From Hadesarchaea archaeon (GTDB lineage Archaea > Hadarchaeota > Hadarchaeia > Hadarchaeales > Hadarchaeaceae), in the NCBI GenBank assembly GCA_029259175.1, contig JAPDJH010000004.1, positions 1 through 64,000 of the forward strand: a DNA stretch of 64,000 bases, given 5' to 3'. The notes beneath the pieces were generated by a model, which worked only from the letters and a program-made list of their open reading frames with translations, did no database searches and was not told where the DNA came from. The first letter of the stretch is position 1, and each line of letters starts with the position of its first letter. Both the position numbers and the translations under genes were made by a program. This document shows, piece by piece, positions 4,196-29,341 of the stretch.

Positions 4196-4245
4196 TTAAG
4201 TTCCGTCCTCCAGCTATTTCTCACTTTTCTCGCTGATCCTTTGCG

Positions 4246-4262
4246 TGAAGGTTGCTTATAAA
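4246..4262. promoter_or_regulatory. TATA-containing motif TGAAGGTTGCTTATAAA, identical to 27106-27122
   Basis: 17-bp exact duplicate, preceded by CTTTGCG in both places; contains TTATAAA. Confidence 0.6.
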
Positions 4263-14912: not shown

Positions 14913-15054
14913 ATCGCGGGTGCCGCTCTTAAGTGTTGGTATGGGGGTTGGGATTCCGCGCGCATGGGGCGCCAAAATCCGGAGGAAACTACGAACCTTC
15001 GGAGTTGTGTGTAAGGGACGCGGTGTGGGGTGCTGAAATGAAGAGCTGGTCCTA

Positions 15055-15345
15055 TCAACGGTGGACGCTCGCAACAGTTTGTGAGCGATGATGTCTAGAA
15101 CAATGTTGCTTGAGTGGTGTCTGACTACGAACCTTCGTAGTCCACTCTACGAGTTCGCGGGCGCGGTACACTCTCAGCTCACGGACTCCGAATTCCTTGA
15201 GCTTGGTTGCGAACTCTAGGGCGAGGCGCAGTTTGCGGAATTCGACGACTGACTGCTGAACGCGCTCGCCGCCGATCTCCTTCAGCTGGCGGTAATGCCA
15301 GCCGGAGAGGCCCCTTCCGCTTTTGTCGAAGATCACCAAGTACAC
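15055..15345 (-). CDS. Stand-alone Cas2-like (Cas2/VapD/PaaX-middle ferredoxin fold) small protein A
   Basis: YLVIFD first strand ending in Asp, GGERVQQSVVEF motif (Cas2 G..VQ.SVF), ~70-aa core. Confidence 0.7.
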   Translation of the reverse strand: MYLVIFDKSGRGLSGWHYRQLKEIGGERVQQSVVEFRKLRLALEFATKLKEFGVRELRVYRARELVEWTTKVRSQTPLKQHCSRHHRSQTVASVHR

Positions 15346-15371
15346 TCGAATCCGTTTCCCCTTGGGTGGTT

Positions 15372-15384
15372 GGTTACTTATAAA
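15372..15384. promoter_or_regulatory. GGTTACTTATAAA TATA motif between Cas2-like gene A and its repeat cluster
   Basis: 12/13 match to GGTTGCTTATAAA at 27110-27122 and 4250-4262. Confidence 0.55.
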
Positions 15385-15648
15385 GCGATAAATCGGTGAA
15401 CTACGAACCTTCGTAGTACAATCTAACCAGAATACGGAGATATGCAGTGCCTACTGCTCCCATGAGTGAAAGCCTGCTCTACGAACCTTCGTAGTGTTCT
15501 CGCCGCCGCCAGAACTACGAACCTTCGTAGTTGGATCTACCACCCTCGAAGCCCACACTATTCACACCCAGCTGCATGATGACTACGAACCTTCGTAGTC
15601 CCGCACAAACCCTAAAATTTTTCTCCCGGCGCGGCTGAAAACGAACTG

Positions 15649-23713: not shown

Positions 23714-24850
23714 ATGAAATCGCCGGCCTTGCGGGCCGTGGTGATGCTCGGAATCGTGAGCCTGCTGGGTGACATCATATACGAGGGATCCAGGGGGCTC
23801 ATTCCGGAATATCTGAGATTCCTCGGTGCCTCTGCACTCGTAGTCGGGACAGTGATGGGGGCGGGTGAGCTAGTAAGCTATGCCGTACGATTGGCGAGCG
23901 GGGTGCTGGCAGACACCACCAGGCGTTACTGGGGACTGACGTTCTTGGGCTACGGGTTGATCATAGGGATTCCGCTGCTGGCCCTCGCCCACAGCTGGCA
24001 GCTGGCGTTGGCGTTCATATTGGTGGAGAGGCTGGGGAAAGCCATACGAACCCCTGCCAGAGACGTTATTCTGGCTGCAGCATCGCGAGGGGTCGGAAAA
24101 GGAAAGGCATTCGGAATACACGAATTCATGGATCAGCTGGGAGCGGTGACTGGGCCTCTGATCGTTGCCGGGCTGGTGTGGGGGACCGGAAGCGATTTCT
24201 CGCTGGTCTTCGGAGCTCTGCTCGTGCCCTATCTGGTGATGCTGGCCTCGTTGATCAGAGCCAAGCGGAACATTGGAGAAATCGGATGGGAGAGAAAAGA
24301 AAGAAAAGCGAAAGTTGGTGCCGGAGCGTTTGTCACCTATACGGCGGCCGTGGGGCTCAACACGCTTGGTCTGATTCCGGCTGCACTCATCTTATACAAG
24401 ACAGCGGGAATGGTTGCTGCCGCTTGGATCGTTCCACTCGTCTATGCCCTCATCCAGATCGTTGATGCTCCCGTGGCGCTCCTGGCGGGGTACGCATACG
24501 ACCGGGTCGGGAGACGTATGCTCCTGCTCCCATTTGCGCTCGCCGTTGTGCCGTCTGTTCTAGTACTTGCCTCTGAAAGCATCGGGGTGATTCTGGTGGC
24601 GGCAATGGTGTTTGGTGCAGTGCTCGGGATGCAGGAGTCCATATATCGGGCGGCCGTGGCAGAGCTGGTACCGGCGGAGAAACGCGGGCGTGCTTACGGG
24701 GTGTTCCACACCGTGTATGGTGTGGCCCTGCTGGGAGCGGGAGCGATGTTTGGGTGGATGCTGGACGCGGGTGCCGGGCTGGCGGTCGGACTGCCCTATG
24801 TGTGCGGGGTTCAGATCACGGCGATTCTGTTGCTCGTTAGGACTCTATGA
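23714..24850 (+). CDS. MFS transporter
   Basis: SGVLADTT, ERLGKAIRTPARD, GYAYDRVGRR, RGRAYG; about 12 TM. Confidence 0.9.
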   Translation: MKSPALRAVVMLGIVSLLGDIIYEGSRGLIPEYLRFLGASALVVGTVMGAGELVSYAVRLASGVLADTTRRYWGLTFLGYGLIIGIPLLALAHSWQLALAFILVERLGKAIRTPARDVILAAASRGVGKGKAFGIHEFMDQLGAVTGPLIVAGLVWGTGSDFSLVFGALLVPYLVMLASLIRAKRNIGEIGWERKERKAKVGAGAFVTYTAAVGLNTLGLIPAALILYKTAGMVAAAWIVPLVYALIQIVDAPVALLAGYAYDRVGRRMLLLPFALAVVPSVLVLASESIGVILVAAMVFGAVLGMQESIYRAAVAELVPAEKRGRAYGVFHTVYGVALLGAGAMFGWMLDAGAGLAVGLPYVCGVQITAILLLVRTL

Positions 24851-25125
24851 CGTTTCTCTGACTTGACGTTCATCGGGAGCCCGCGCGAGATCGAGGCGGC
24901 CATGCGCTCCAGACGTGCCTGCTTGACCACCCTGCGCTTGAATGCCAAGTAGAACCCGAGCGAAGCTCCCAGCGAGATCATGACGACTACGGCGAAAACC
25001 GCTGAAAGCTCTGAGAGGCCGAGACCGGAGGGGATCACCGAGACCCACAGGACGGCGACCATCGCAGCGGAAACTGCTAGGGTTATCCCTACTATGGCTA
25101 GGAGTTCGGCCGTGCTTGCGCGCAC
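24811..25125 (-). CDS. Small 2-TM membrane protein
   Basis: Two hydrophobic helices; downstream of 25139-26221 on the same strand. Confidence 0.5.
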   Translation of the reverse strand: MRASTAELLAIVGITLAVSAAMVAVLWVSVIPSGLGLSELSAVFAVVVMISLGASLGFYLAFKRRVVKQARLERMAASISRGLPMNVKSEKRHRVLTSNRIAVI

Positions 25126-25138
25126 CTCGAGCCCCTCC

Positions 25139-26221
25139 TCAGTAGCGGCGGAGAACGATCTGTCGGGTCGCGGCGATGCTTATCAAAGCTGCAACTATGG
25201 CGGCGGCGAGCACCGTGAGCCACGGGATCACTTGTACCAGACCGATCGCTCCGAGCACTCCGATCTTCGGGTCGTGGACAATGCTGGTTCCGCGCTCATA
25301 GATCAAGTAGAGCTCCCGGTCGCCCTCCTCGACGTCATGGATGAGCTCGGTGGACAGAACCGGACGCTCAACACCATCTACGAGGGCCGTGTCCTTCCAA
25401 GAGAAGAAGCCGCCGAAACCACCGGACTTGATCTCGATCTCTGTTTCCCGTTCGAACTCCTTGGATTTCACCTCCTCCTCGATTTCGCGTTCGCTTTTCA
25501 GCTCGGTCTTCAGCGCGAGCTTAGAGTCAGTCCGAGTGTACGGGAAGTTGTTGATCTCCACGGTGATCTTGGCCTCGTTGGGAGTTATGTTTTCACCGTC
25601 GAGAGTCACCGGCTGGCCAGAAGAATAGAGAATCGCCTTGAAAACACCGTCCGTGGTCTGAACGGTGATCTTGTGCACTTGAACTCCGTTCACGTTTTCC
25701 ACAGTGTACTGCAGGGGTGCGAAGCTCGCATGTTTCAGGTCGTAGGTGTAGACGGCTTCTCCGGGATCGTATACGCCGTCGTTGTCGTTGTCGACGAATT
25801 CTACAATGGAGTCGAACTCGGCTTCAAATTCGAGTTCGATTTCACGCTCGATCTCCACGTTGTCCGCGAGCTCGAACTCCGTGGAGAACTCCAGCCGGAA
25901 CTCGACGCCCTCGTCCGTATCCACCCGCAGCTTGATCTCGTCTTCTATTCGACCGGGTTCGGTTTCGCTGTAATTCTTGGCTTTGATTTCAACGCGGTCC
26001 GTCTCGACTTTGATCTCGATTTCTCGCTCTTCCTTTTCGATATCGTGTTCTTCGTCGACCTCATGTTCGATGTCAGAAGTTTCCTTGGGAGCGGGTGTTT
26101 GGTTTTCAGCGATGTCGGGGAGTTCGTCGGGTTCCTCCTTGCCCAGCGTCGGGACGGGGGCGAACGCTGTTGTCAGGAGTACGGCGCACAGGACCCATGC
26201 GACCACTTTTGCCGTTTTCAT
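25139..26221 (-). CDS. Acidic secreted protein with C-terminal membrane anchor
   Basis: Signal peptide, Glu-rich segments, DNDNDGVYD Ca-binding-like loop, IVHDPKIG, C-terminal TM. Confidence 0.8.
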   Translation of the reverse strand: MKTAKVVAWVLCAVLLTTAFAPVPTLGKEEPDELPDIAENQTPAPKETSDIEHEVDEEHDIEKEEREIEIKVETDRVEIKAKNYSETEPGRIEDEIKLRVDTDEGVEFRLEFSTEFELADNVEIEREIELEFEAEFDSIVEFVDNDNDGVYDPGEAVYTYDLKHASFAPLQYTVENVNGVQVHKITVQTTDGVFKAILYSSGQPVTLDGENITPNEAKITVEINNFPYTRTDSKLALKTELKSEREIEEEVKSKEFERETEIEIKSGGFGGFFSWKDTALVDGVERPVLSTELIHDVEEGDRELYLIYERGTSIVHDPKIGVLGAIGLVQVIPWLTVLAAAIVAALISIAATRQIVLRRY

Positions 26222-26437
26222 TTTTTACCACCTCCGAGAGGCAAGTATGACCAAAAGGGAGATATAAAAAATCTCGGACAAATTTTCATCGAGCTGGCAA
26301 AATACAAGTGTTTATCGTTCAGATCTAGAAAAAGGGGCGAAAAATCGTTCAGAAACTTGCACGAAGTCAAAGGAGAGTGGAAAAACAACAAATCCCAAGA
26401 AATTTAAGAAATCGCGATATCAGGGTTTTAGGGACTC

Positions 26438-26878
26438 ATGAAGCTTGTCGAAGTGCTCTCAGTTATTCTGATAGCGCTCATAGTGGCCATTTTGAGCGGA
26501 GTGGTTCTGTTCGGTGTGCTGGGCATTGCGCCAGACATCGAGCCGAGCATGATCGCGTTTGCTATGCTAGTGATGATGGCGATCACCGTAGGATCAACCC
26601 TAGTCTTCTACGTGGCGTTCACACGGTACGCCGCAGAACGGGCGGTACGCGTAGCGATGCTGGCGCTGAGCGAGGACGAGCGAGCGGTGCTCCAGAAGCT
26701 CATGGAGTTCGGAGGTGAGGTTCGCCAGGAGGATCTGTGGCGAAAGCTACGGGATCGGTACTCCAAGTCTAAGCTGAGCGCGCTCGTCATCAACTTGGAG
26801 CGGAAACACGTGCTCACGCGGCAACGGTAGTATCGGACAAACTTGCTAAGGTTGACTCCTGAGTTTAGGAGGAAATGA
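26438..26878 (+). pseudogene. Membrane-anchored winged-HTH regulator interrupted by in-frame TAG at 26828-26830
   Basis: 2 TM + LSEDERAVL...VRQEDL...SKSKLSALVINLERK; the frame continues after TAG as YRTNLLRLTPEFRRK-TGA, completing the wing. Confidence 0.6.
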
Positions 26879-27085
26879 CAAAGGTTTGTCATCGGAACGC
26901 AGGGGCACCACGAGCGCCCGCCCTCCGTTAGAATTGACGAGTTCGGCGAGCGCGCGGCACTGCTCAGGATTCTCCAGCTTCCACACGGACTGCTGGATCT
27001 GCTCGGCTCTGCACTGGTGGAGCTTTCGATTGAGCCTCAGCGCATTGTTTGTCCCGCAGATATCGTACACCAGCAGGTACGGCAT
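26846..27085 (-). CDS. Stand-alone Cas2-like small protein B
   Basis: MPYLLVYDI (canonical Cas2 start), LNRKL, QIQQSVW; GGGAG upstream of the ATG. Confidence 0.75.
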   Translation of the reverse strand: MPYLLVYDICGTNNALRLNRKLHQCRAEQIQQSVWKLENPEQCRALAELVNSNGGRALVVPLRSDDKPLSFPPKLRSQP

Positions 27086-27300
27086 CTCCCACGATCGCTT
27101 TGCGCTGAAGGTTGCTTATAAAGGAACAATAGAGCGGATGCTGGAATGACAAAGGTTTGTCACTCACTAAGCCACACTCCCACGATAAAGGTTTGTCAAA
27201 GACCGGCTGTGACAAAGGTTTGTCATCCGCTAGAAAAGTCAAGCTCTCATGACAAAGGTTTGTCAAAGCTCAGACACCAGTTGCGACAAAGGTTTGTCAT
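26875..27300. repeat. Array B: six copies of 16-bp palindrome TGACAAAGGTTTGTCA
   Basis: Copies at 26876-26891, 27147-27162, 27183-27198 (CGATAAA variant), 27210-27225, 27250-27265, 27284-27299 (first base C); spacers 20, 11, 24, 18 bp. Confidence 0.95.
27106..27122. promoter_or_regulatory. TATA motif between Cas2-like gene B and its repeat cluster
   Basis: TGAAGGTTGCTTATAAA; 20 bp from the gene start on -, 24 bp from the first repeat on +. Confidence 0.6.
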
Positions 27301-27314
27301 CCGTCAACGGGCAG

Positions 27315-28496
27315 CTACTCTCTCCCCAGCAGCAGCCTCATAAACTCCGGCCCCTCCACAAATCCCAGCGACCCCTGCGCACCCGCCCGCTCACAAAACG
27401 CCAGCCCGTCTCCTCTCTCTCCCGGCCTGTAAATCACGAAAGGAATCGGATCCGATGTGTGAACTTTTTTCGAAACGGGCGTCGGGTGATCCGGCAGCAC
27501 CGCAATCGTGCACCCCTCGGCCCGCTCAACTATCGGACCCACCAATCTGCGATCGAACTCCTCGAGCACGCGCACCTTCCGCTCGGCACTCCCCTCGTGA
27601 CCCGCCTCGTCCGGCGCTTCAACGTGCACGTACACCAGATCATTTCTTTCCAGAGCCTTGAGCGCGTGATCGGCCTTCCCCTCGTAGTTGGTGTCGTAGT
27701 AGCCCGTGGCCCCGGGCACGTCAACGATTTCCATTCCCGCATAAACACCTATCCCCTTGATCAGCAGAACCGCGGAAATCATCGCCCCCTGGATTCCGTA
27801 CCGCCGCTCAAAGGGCTCGAGCCGCGGCCTTGGACCAGGACTCCACAACCATATCATGTTGGCCGGTCTCTTCCCTTCCTCCCTCCTGCGCCGGTTCACC
27901 GGGTGCTCCGAGAGCACGTCCCGCGACCGCAGCATCAGCTCGTTCAACCGCTTTCCGAGCCCACCCGCCTCTGGCGGTATGAGGTGTTCATCTATCGCCT
28001 CCCCCACTATGTTGTGCGGTGGCGTGCACCCAAGCGTAATCTCGGCACCGCGAACCACGAAGATATGTCTGTAGCTCACCCCGACAAAGAACTCTCCAAC
28101 CCCCAGCTTCGCAACCTCTCGGAGGAGCTCCCTGGCCTCTCCCGTGCTCACGTGCCCCGCCGAATAGTCCACCATCCGTCCGCCCTCCACCGTCACCAGA
28201 TTGCACCTGAAAGCCACATCGCGCTCGCCCAGCCGGACACCCATCGCCCCCGCCTCCAGCGGTCCGCGTCCCGTGTAGTACCGCCTCGGATCGTATCCCA
28301 GAATCGAGAGATTGGCAATCGAGGAATCCGGCTCCATCCCCTCCGGAATCGTTTTTAACATCCCCATTCTCCCATGCCCTGCAAGCCAATCCATATTGGG
28401 AGTGTCGGCGGCCTCGAGGGGTGTTCGGCCACCCAGCTCCTCAACCGGATAATCAGCCATTCCGTCCCCAACGATCACTACGTACTTCACCCGCAT
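27315..28496 (-). CDS. apgM: Cofactor-independent phosphoglycerate mutase (ApgM family)
   Basis: IVGDGMAD, TPLEAADTPNMD, GRGPLEA, HVEAPDEAGH, PDHPTP, HTSDPIP; start ATG 28496. Confidence 0.92.
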   Translation of the reverse strand: MRVKYVVIVGDGMADYPVEELGGRTPLEAADTPNMDWLAGHGRMGMLKTIPEGMEPDSSIANLSILGYDPRRYYTGRGPLEAGAMGVRLGERDVAFRCNLVTVEGGRMVDYSAGHVSTGEARELLREVAKLGVGEFFVGVSYRHIFVVRGAEITLGCTPPHNIVGEAIDEHLIPPEAGGLGKRLNELMLRSRDVLSEHPVNRRRREEGKRPANMIWLWSPGPRPRLEPFERRYGIQGAMISAVLLIKGIGVYAGMEIVDVPGATGYYDTNYEGKADHALKALERNDLVYVHVEAPDEAGHEGSAERKVRVLEEFDRRLVGPIVERAEGCTIAVLPDHPTPVSKKVHTSDPIPFVIYRPGERGDGLAFCERAGAQGSLGFVEGPEFMRLLLGRE

Positions 28497-29341
28497 CACC
28501 TGAAAACCAATATTTCTTCTTCGTAGCGCCTGCCCTCCCACACCGACCCGGGCGGCAGGCGTTCCACCCGCCGGTTGCTGAGCCGTTCCTCAAACATGCG
28601 ATTGACTTCGTCGAGCGGAATGGTGTCGTAAAGCCATTCCAGAGGCACACCTATGTTCACGGGACGCGCCGGAACCATGTGTCGAGTCGTCTTGTGAGCA
28701 AACACGTGGCCCGCGAGCGCCAGCTGCAACACCTCCTCTTTTTTCACGCACGGAACCATCAGCACCCCCGTCTCACCCACCCTTCGCTCAGCATCCTCCT
28801 CGTGCTCATAGCTGATCTCCGCACCCTCCTCGCGCAGCGCCAGCTCCAACCGCTTCACCCACGTATATGCCTCGAGCACATCGCCTTTCCGACCTCCCTG
28901 CACCATCAGACATCCTGAGACCGTGCGGTACGCCGCAATTATCTCTCTCCGCTCCAGCGCTTCCTTGGCCTCCGCTGGCGAAGACGACAGGACCTTTAGA
29001 CCCAACAGCCGAACTATCTCGACGAATTTCTCCTCGCCAATCCCCTTGACCACCCGATACCAGCACCCCACCTTTATCGCTGGGTGCCGGTAGTCCACCT
29101 CGCACACGGGCAGGCGCGTACACCCCAACTTCTCCAATGCGGCAACGCGGTGCATCCCGTCCAGCACCACCAGCGAGCGCTCATCCACGAGCACCGGATC
29201 CTTGACCGCATTGTTCTGCTTTATGTCCGCGATCAGCTGCTCGAGGAGCTCCGGAACTATCTCCTCGTGAATCAGCACGTCCCCTATCTCCAATATCCTC
29301 AGCTTTAGCGCAAGCCCAGCCGTCCTGAACTCGAAAACCAA
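28496..29341 (-). CDS. ParB/Srx-domain protein, SerK/SbnI-like kinase candidate
   Basis: IHEEIVPE, VLDGMHRVAAL, KTTRH; start uncertain (TTG 29341 chosen). Confidence 0.75.
   Translation of the reverse strand: MVFEFRTAGLALKLRILEIGDVLIHEEIVPELLEQLIADIKQNNAVKDPVLVDERSLVVLDGMHRVAALEKLGCTRLPVCEVDYRHPAIKVGCWYRVVKGIGEEKFVEIVRLLGLKVLSSSPAEAKEALERREIIAAYRTVSGCLMVQGGRKGDVLEAYTWVKRLELALREEGAEISYEHEEDAERRVGETGVLMVPCVKKEEVLQLALAGHVFAHKTTRHMVPARPVNIGVPLEWLYDTIPLDEVNRMFEERLSNRRVERLPPGSVWEGRRYEEEILVFR

Follow-up and report, generated by a model that had tools for sequence, protein, structure and literature searches.

CRISPR arrays are built of direct repeats longer than 20 bp, separated by unique spacers of near-constant length, and some Cas2 proteins are single-stranded RNA endoribonucleases; outside CRISPR adaptation, Cas2 is known to us only as a relative of the VapD toxin and as a domain of regulators of the PaaX and ChrB types. 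In type III toxin-antitoxin systems of the ToxIN kind, ToxI is a perfect tandem RNA repeat that is co-transcribed with the toxin from one promoter. Papillomavirus E2, and EBNA1 at oriP, are dimeric ferredoxin-like proteins that bind palindrome arrays, and omega and ParR are small binders of plasmid centromeres or operators. In bacteria, REPIN/RAYT systems associate repetitive extragenic palindromic (REP) sequences with a REP-associated tyrosine transposase (PMC3116915, PMC3337134). The present work concerns a stretch of 64,000 nucleotides from a Hadesarchaea archaeon (contig JAPDJH010000004.1, positions 1 to 64,000, hereafter the window), in which a cassette of 424 bases, lying between a winged helix-turn-helix (wHTH) gene and apgM, holds a small Cas2-like gene and six copies of the 16-base palindrome TGACAAAGGTTTGTCA. 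It belongs to an apparently undescribed family of palindrome-bounded Cas2-like cassettes, and we lean, on balance, toward seeing in it a small selfish cassette, specific to Hadarchaeota, whose Cas2-like protein would recognize its own palindromes.

The palindrome consists of 7-nt arms around a 2-nt center (7+2+7), and a 16-mer search bore out the six copies, with the spacings between them, that the initial annotation had described. Four copies are exact (26876-26891, 27147-27162, 27210-27225 and 27250-27265), copy 6 has one mismatch (27284-27299) and copy 3 has two (27183-27198); counted strand by strand, 11 matches to TGACAAAGGTTTGTCA were observed against 0.49 expected, a number reached in 0 of 100 shuffles. 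One copy lies at the 3' end of the Cas2-like gene and five lie upstream of its promoter. Copy 1 (26876-26891) is the downstream boundary of the cassette, within the 3' tail of the Cas2-like open reading frame (ORF), and its first three bases are the TGA (26876-26878) of the convergent wHTH gene. This TGA is the normal stop of the wHTH family, since nine of nine homologues from relatives end at that position, in agreement with the claim that the leftmost copy overlaps the ancestral stop codon. The remaining copies make up the upstream array (27147-27299), where copies 2 to 6 are separated by gaps of 20, 11, 24 and 18 nt; copy 6 ends 15 nt short of the apgM stop codon (27315-27317), and the six copies do occupy the gap between the two convergent genes, as had been noticed. 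Tandem Repeats Finder reported nothing in the array region. The unit formed by copies 3-4 and that formed by copies 5-6 are identical at 54 of 67 positions, plus a 7-nt indel, as after the tandem duplication of a two-copy unit. Because the array grew by duplicating this unit, its "spacers" are not acquired sequences and are, as their alignment indicates, diverged duplicates of one another.

The Cas2-like gene (26846-27085, minus strand) encodes 79 residues, and Pfam, profile comparison with the PDB and fold matching all place its product in the Cas2 superfamily. The conserved domain spans residues 1 to about 65 (26891-27085), and the tail (residues 62-79), which is predicted to be disordered, reads through palindrome copy 1. 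The window protein matches PF09827 (CRISPR_Cas2) with an E-value of 0.001 and 19.6 bits, below the 23.8 cut-off. The family profile and alignment comprise 25 members: the profile matches Cas2 chains in the PDB (3exc at 6.3e-5, 2i8e/2ivy at about 2e-4, 7kft at 7e-4), and a Pfam scan of the 25 proteins matches PF09827 in 20 (E up to 0.1, best 6.8e-6), PaaX_M in 13 and ChrB_N in 9. Cas2 models of PADLOC match four of the five members scanned (6e-6 to 3e-3), none of them matching the fifth, which is encoded by a second cassette of the window (Array A). The AlphaFold2 (AF2) model has strands at residues 3-8, 28-31, 34-37 and 56-61 and helices at 12-24 and 40-52; its top Foldseek matches are Cas2 proteins (3exc with a TM score of 0.65, 2ivy, 5h1o, 2i0x and others), all four matches with E <= 0.001 are Cas2 chains, and Cas2 dominates the next ranks, with VapD at rank 23. 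At least 90% of the proteins in the 25-member alignment have Asp8, which lies where strand 1 ends; we take this conserved position to be the Cas2 metal site.

NCBIfam has no family for either of the two Cas2-like ORFs of the window, and PHROGs gave none for them, with one of five family members scanned reaching a marginal E of 0.099. Canonical genes are found on contig C1, with the sole Cas1 match (216916-217788), a Cas2 gene (219944-220159) and a CRISPR array with 37-nt repeats (around 214331), and the window lies on contig C2, away from cas1 and from the true CRISPR array. Two residues of helix 1 that all 24 other aligned members have are missing from the window protein, and another sample contains a 96%-identical protein (P0001) that ends in the same tail and has helix 1 complete. 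A further protein from another sample, P0002 (78 aa), consists of the first ~47 Cas2-like residues followed by the wHTH protein's C-terminal tail; the two source parts are encoded on opposite strands in the window, a 9-nt inverted repeat, GCGCGCTCG, stands at both junction points, and P0002 may be an inversion or an assembly chimera.

The sister cassette, Array A (14988-15599, minus strand), has a Cas2-like ORF at 15055-15345 with a GTG start and a profile E-value of 1.7e-18; its own palindrome, ACTACGAACCTTCGTAGT, occurs at 14988, 15124, 15400, 15478, 15514 and 15582, its TATA lies at 15378-15384, 32 nt before the start, and the layout is that of the TGACAAAGGTTTGTCA cassette (Array B). A third Cas2-like gene (C16:6489-6683) stands among copies of TGTCCCATATGGGACA, and the genome carries five palindrome types of the same build. 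Profile searches found the Cas2-like protein in 32 of 66 Hadarchaeota genomes, with 0-4 copies per genome, and in one of the three other genomes searched from the window's own genus. At 26 loci, where the locus-specific 7+2+7 palindrome was counted within 450 bp, at least three copies are present in 19 cases (18 if the imperfect motif of L107 is dropped), and they flank the gene on both sides in 16 of these 19 array-bearing loci. Several cassettes have their ATG inside a palindrome (..GTATGTCATAC, encoding Met-Ser-Tyr) and a TGA stop that is the first three bases of another one; the start codon is covered in L008, L010 and L013. Palindromic sites are present at the gene's own promoter, as for an autoregulated transcription factor with its operators, and the neighbors of the cassettes are ordinary housekeeping genes that differ from locus to locus. 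Across 20 cassettes, protein identity and palindrome identity are correlated (r = 0.68, a value reached by 0 of 5000 Mantel permutations), and G000_A2 and G031, from different families, share the same protein type and the same CTACG..CGTAG palindrome. The sequences thus show the gene and its palindrome to remain linked and to change in step, a correlation that does not prove binding.

Two further observations touch the extent of the family. A variant 18-mer of Array A, ACTACGAACCTTCGGAGT, recurs exactly at G000:C1:31305, between ornithine-cyclodeaminase-like and vapB-like genes. Outside Hadarchaeota, a candidate lead comes from a language model only, as three clusters of 75-170 small archaeal proteins (best 0.92). 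A related-locus search with P0010 returned no relative, and the broad alignments A1 and A4 showed no stretch of sufficient conservation.

How do these cassettes spread? In genome G005, the cassettes of contigs C44 and C10 are 99.1% identical over 336 bp (3 mismatches), with unrelated flanks; the identity runs from 2 nt before the outer left palindrome to the last base of the right palindrome, and no target duplication was seen at the two copies. Between G014 and G005, which belong to different genera, an identity of 80% is confined to the same cassette span. What was duplicated to an unrelated locus is a discrete unit, the cassette, with palindromes at its ends, and the presence of homologous units in unrelated contexts upholds the initial idea of an inserted cassette. 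The palindromes also occur away from any gene of the family: arrays of the A1 type, with palindrome CTACGATAAATCGTAG, lie at C1:41363-41569, C14:4048-4326 and C7:6771-6875 and are 75-93% identical, their spacers included, and no cognate small gene for them was found in the assembly (91% complete). Relatives too carry extra palindrome arrays and single copies.

Some of the palindromes are found inside highly conserved coding genes. The sole other TGACAAAGGTTTGTCA copy in the 1.3-Mb genome, that is, the A3 palindrome type, lies in the TFB gene (G000:C2:200704-200719; L005:1501-1516), where it spells out the codons for His-Asp-Lys-Gly-Leu-Ser and begins 8 nt downstream of an intein end. Of 29 TFB sequences, that of this genome alone has the perfect 16-mer, and only synonymous changes set it apart from the others; a stretch of 19 nt is common to TFB and array copy 5, and the TFB allele of G004 matches copy 3 exactly over 19 nt. 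The A4 type has a perfect copy in hypE (G000:C9:2487-2502; L112:688-703), with 20 nt shared with one array copy. The hypE product reads SDVCPIWDIV here and SD(V/I)AP in 19 of 19 relatives, and the Cys codon belongs to the A4 palindrome copy, which points to copying from array to gene. For a random 7+2+7 palindrome, the probability of an exact copy in this genome is 6.25e-4, yet two of the five types occur inside a gene; among 15 single or paired sites inspected across the searched genomes, six lie inside genes (frames read by hand).

Other observations bear on the same sites. The TFB intein is large, and the intein-bearing alleles of G000, G014 and G015 share a downstream flank, ACGATCCAYGAYAAAGGTTTGTC, that contains the TGACAAAGGTTTGTCA palindrome, as if this flank had been co-converted with the intein; the homing site of the intein was also considered as the reason for the array, and neither logic nor evidence was found for it. 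Perfect copies of TGTCCTAAATAGGACA are present inside two neighboring radical-SAM (lipS-like) genes in two genera (G048:C160, G051:C30 and G062:C18; L143, L145 and L146), and these genes are orthologous to G000:C6:61468-63242.

Such a distribution could also be expected of an ordinary regulon, in which the palindromes would be operators of a host factor encoded elsewhere and the Cas2-like gene just one regulated member. Arrays and single sites are often at promoters, for example at C1:41363-41569, between two aromatic amino-acid genes with divergent promoters, or upstream of glyA in G013; the A4 palindrome also occurs upstream of a helix-turn-helix (HTH) gene (C2:187163-187483), and one palindrome type recurs inside the neighboring lipS-like genes of two genera. 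However, each genome has several palindrome types, each linked just to the small gene inside its own cassette, arrays also lie between convergent gene ends (in the window, on C14 and at G007:C16), and the unit duplicated in G005 ends at palindromes, all of which makes the regulon quite improbable in our view.

The promoter of the Cas2-like gene (27086-27123, minus strand) consists of TTTATAA (27123 to 27117) followed by GCAACCTTCAGCGCAAAG, and the ATG at 27085 stands 31 nt after the TATA; since this ORF is on the same strand as apgM, it can be served by the TATA box. Downstream of the TATA lies an oriented motif, GCAACCTYCA..CAAAG, with 12 occurrences in the genome; an ORF of at least 79 aa starts 27-36 nt downstream in nine of them, and some of these ORFs are ordinary genes without palindromes nearby. 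Judged from this motif, the TATA at 27117-27123 is the standard promoter of the lineage, aimed at the minus-strand Cas2-like gene and away from the array. The conserved promoter was also considered as a proof of homology between cassettes, an argument that was rejected since ordinary genes are driven by the same motif. The promoter motif is also present in full (TTTATAAGCAACCTTCACGCAAAGG) on the minus strand at 4222-4262 of the window, where just a 12-codon frame follows; it might drive expression of either a small RNA or a very small protein.

The initial annotation had read the same region as a divergent plus-strand promoter that feeds a repeat-spacer RNA, analogous to a leader plus array. 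The offset that it gave is correct, as copy 2 starts 24 nt after TTATAAA (27117-27123), but the sequence does not support the proposed plus-strand promoter and repeat-spacer RNA: the downstream motif points the TATA at the minus-strand gene, the distance between the TATA and the nearest palindrome, upstream of it, varies from ~6 to 27 nt across cassettes, some cassettes have most of their copies downstream of the gene, and the spacers are paralogous.

Are the palindromes read as RNA or as DNA? In an RNA-level system, the array would be transcribed, its palindromes would form hairpins, and the Cas2-like protein would act as an RNase that binds or cuts them; the array would then be a source of small RNA, or an RNA antitoxin or decoy comparable to those of type III toxin-antitoxin systems, and the copies in the TFB and hypE mRNAs would be targets. 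The best structural matches, 3exc and 2ivy, are Sulfolobus proteins by title, presumably Cas2 proteins with single-stranded RNA endoribonuclease activity, and the conserved Asp is kept. Read-through from apgM would give a minus-strand RNA in which five copies are fully complementary to the 16 nt of the TFB mRNA, and the array folds better than its shuffles (z of -2.4 and -3.3). These z-scores, however, follow from the repeated palindromes alone, and Rfam has no match for the cassette; the promoter stands between array and gene and points away from the array, and cassettes differ freely in how many copies they have on each side of the gene.

A further indication comes from the arms themselves, which were compared in 350 arm pairs from 50 palindrome copies of 10 cassettes. 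Watson-Crick pairing is kept in 305 pairs, and the 45 imperfect ones comprise 24 mismatches and 21 wobbles when read on the sense strand, and 27 and 18, respectively, on the antisense strand. Imperfect pairs thus include non-wobble mismatches on both strands and the half-sites drift independently, with none of the compensation expected of RNA stems, a pattern that favors a symmetric protein on duplex DNA over hairpin RNA and leaves the RNA-level system distinctly unlikely. Palindromes as terminators were rejected as well: archaeal termination needs T-runs, and none follows the copies.

The reading that we prefer, a selfish cassette with a self-recognizing protein, would work as follows. The palindromes would be sites on double-stranded DNA, which the Cas2-like protein would read as a symmetric dimer; the prediction of a homodimer complex from the family alignment (median score of 0.27, for a mark of 0.42) speaks neither for nor against such a dimer. 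This self-recognition would probably entail autoregulation, as the palindrome at the start codon of several relatives suggests, and would be the basis on which the cassette, gene-less arrays and single palindromes spread. This spread would include the rewriting of near-matching sites in hypE and TFB into perfect copies, possibly via cleavage by the conserved-Asp nuclease site and subsequent short-patch templated repair. A bolder version, which we find doubtful, makes the cassette an autonomous mobile element of 336 to ~425 bp, whose sole protein would be a Cas2-family nuclease that cuts its own 16-bp palindrome: a cut at each of its two flanking copies would release the unit, and cuts at other copies or at near-matches would let the unit, or single palindrome units, be joined in or copied in. 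If true, it would explain the irregular-gap arrays, the gene-less arrays, the single copies and the overwritten look-alikes in hypE and TFB.

Several points weigh against a selfish cassette with a self-recognizing protein. To our knowledge, sequence-specific DNA binding is not a known property of Cas2 proteins, and searches of the window protein in Pfam, NCBIfam and PDB profiles gave no match to HTH, ribbon-helix-helix (RHH) or other DNA-binding families. The duplication in G005 comes from one metagenome-assembled genome. Seven of the 26 loci have no palindrome array (one of them is at a contig end), and the correlation between protein and palindrome is expected from plain co-inheritance, the genomes compared being kin. 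In a subgroup of cassettes, a second gene, ORF-X (107 aa; G000:C15:2297-2617; L016-L018, L090-L105), lies upstream of the Cas2-like gene and could be the real partner instead; this subgroup stays in a syntenic place and looks vertical, not mobile. The layout is not tied to Cas2 either, as it is also that of a 98-aa HTH gene at C3:183165-183461. The TFB and hypE sites could result from selection for binding sites instead of conversion. Finally, the window copy is possibly decaying, with its 2-residue deletion in helix 1 and a stop that lies beyond the palindrome.

This last point leads to the possibility that the cassette is an inactive relic and that the TFB and hypE copies are due to coincidence or to ordinary mutation. 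Besides the helix 1 deletion, the read-through tail, a premature TAG in the adjacent wHTH gene and the degenerate copies 3 and 6 would fit a relic; but the ORF is open, four of six copies are exact, the same tail is found in the 96%-identical protein from another sample, and chance copies at the frequency given above would not be expected in two of five palindrome types. We hold the relic to be very unlikely.

As to ORF-X, it has no Pfam match and no meaningful PDB match, and on contig C15 of G000 a small, very diverged ORF beginning FYLLIVEDD comes after it. Around the HTH gene of contig C3 (G000:C3:183134-183875), a 22-bp palindrome, AACTACACACCCCTGTGTAGTT, occurs once after the stop and four times upstream, with the same promoter type.

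The neighbors of the window cassette lie outside it. The wHTH gene (26438-26878, plus strand) is membrane-anchored and DUF7343-like; under table 11 its ORF stops at an in-frame TAG (26828-26830), and the frame continues for 15 codons to the TGA at 26876-26878. The early TAG would cut off those 15 codons and with them part of the winged helix; nine of nine homologues from relatives have Tyr or His at this position and read on past it. A pyrrolysine at this TAG was rejected, as no PylS over the cut-off was found in the genome and the relatives carry Tyr or His; for the same two reasons, the TAG is either a nonsense change or an assembly error. On the other side, apgM (27315-28541, minus strand; 2,3-bisphosphoglycerate-independent phosphoglycerate mutase, PF10143 at 1.1e-54 and PF01676 at 4.2e-46) is on the same strand as the Cas2-like gene.

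An MFS gene and apgM are directly convergent in G002, G003 and G004, whereas the MFS homologue here ends at 24850, so that the whole of 24851-27314 (2.46 kb), missing in these three genomes, is extra in this one; it comprises orf104 (a small membrane ORF), orf360 (a 360-aa acidic protein, secreted or anchored), the wHTH gene and the cassette. The identity of apgM within the genus is merely 62-65%, and the window has no close relative. An empty site, with the wHTH gene directly beside apgM, had been proposed as a check on insertion, and no such allele was found; a metagenome scan with the wHTH protein gave one contig, which ends inside the gene and is uninformative in this respect. No member of the Cas2-like family is present at nine loci of wHTH homologues and five of apgM, the only matches coming from the chimeric P0002, via its wHTH-like tail.

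Taken together, cassettes of 336 to ~425 bp, for which there is evidence of recent copying, carry a stand-alone Cas2-family gene that travels together with clustered short palindromes of its own, and no such cassette was described in the literature titles and abstracts searched. If the protein reads or cuts the palindromes, archaea would possess a gene-plus-palindrome element of a new kind. Compact modules for sequence-specific DNA binding or cutting could possibly be drawn from it, and it would offer a testable case for a linkage of Cas2 with repeats before, or apart from, Cas1. The autonomous element, if real, would be the smallest self-mobilizing element that we know of, and would provide a Cas1-independent link between Cas2 and palindromic repeats, with a bearing on the origin of CRISPR repeats and of the adaptation module.

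Compared with known systems, the cassette resembles CRISPR with Cas1-Cas2 in that a Cas2-family protein stands beside clustered short palindromic repeats with short non-repeat stretches between them. Unlike in CRISPR, its repeats are of 16 bp, the gaps are irregular (11-24 nt) and paralogous, no cas1 lies near the cassette and, by sequence, no leader promoter points into the array; a normal CRISPR-Cas locus exists elsewhere. A repeat array directly upstream of a small nuclease-like gene recalls ToxIN, but in the cassette the promoter lies between array and gene, the spacing is irregular and copies are also found after the gene. As in E2, EBNA1, omega and ParR, a small dimer would read iterated sites by its own gene, with autoregulation and maintenance of a selfish replicon; unlike them, the cassette has no partner ATPase or replication origin, and the likeness is one of layout, DNA binding being putative.

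A last comparison is with REPIN/RAYT (PMC3116915, PMC3337134). Where RAYTs are HUH/Y1 (IS200/IS605-like) transposases, the protein here has a Cas2 fold, no HxH motif was seen in the family alignment, and profile and fold matches are of the Cas2 type only. In these archaeal hosts, each type has ~7-16 palindrome copies, not hundreds, the gene was copied along with its palindromes (in G005), and palindromes are also found inside coding genes. As described for REPIN/RAYT, however, a usually single-copy gene is flanked by cognate short palindromes with gene-less copies elsewhere in the genome, and several such pairs per genome, each with its own palindrome, combine mostly vertical inheritance with spread within the genome.

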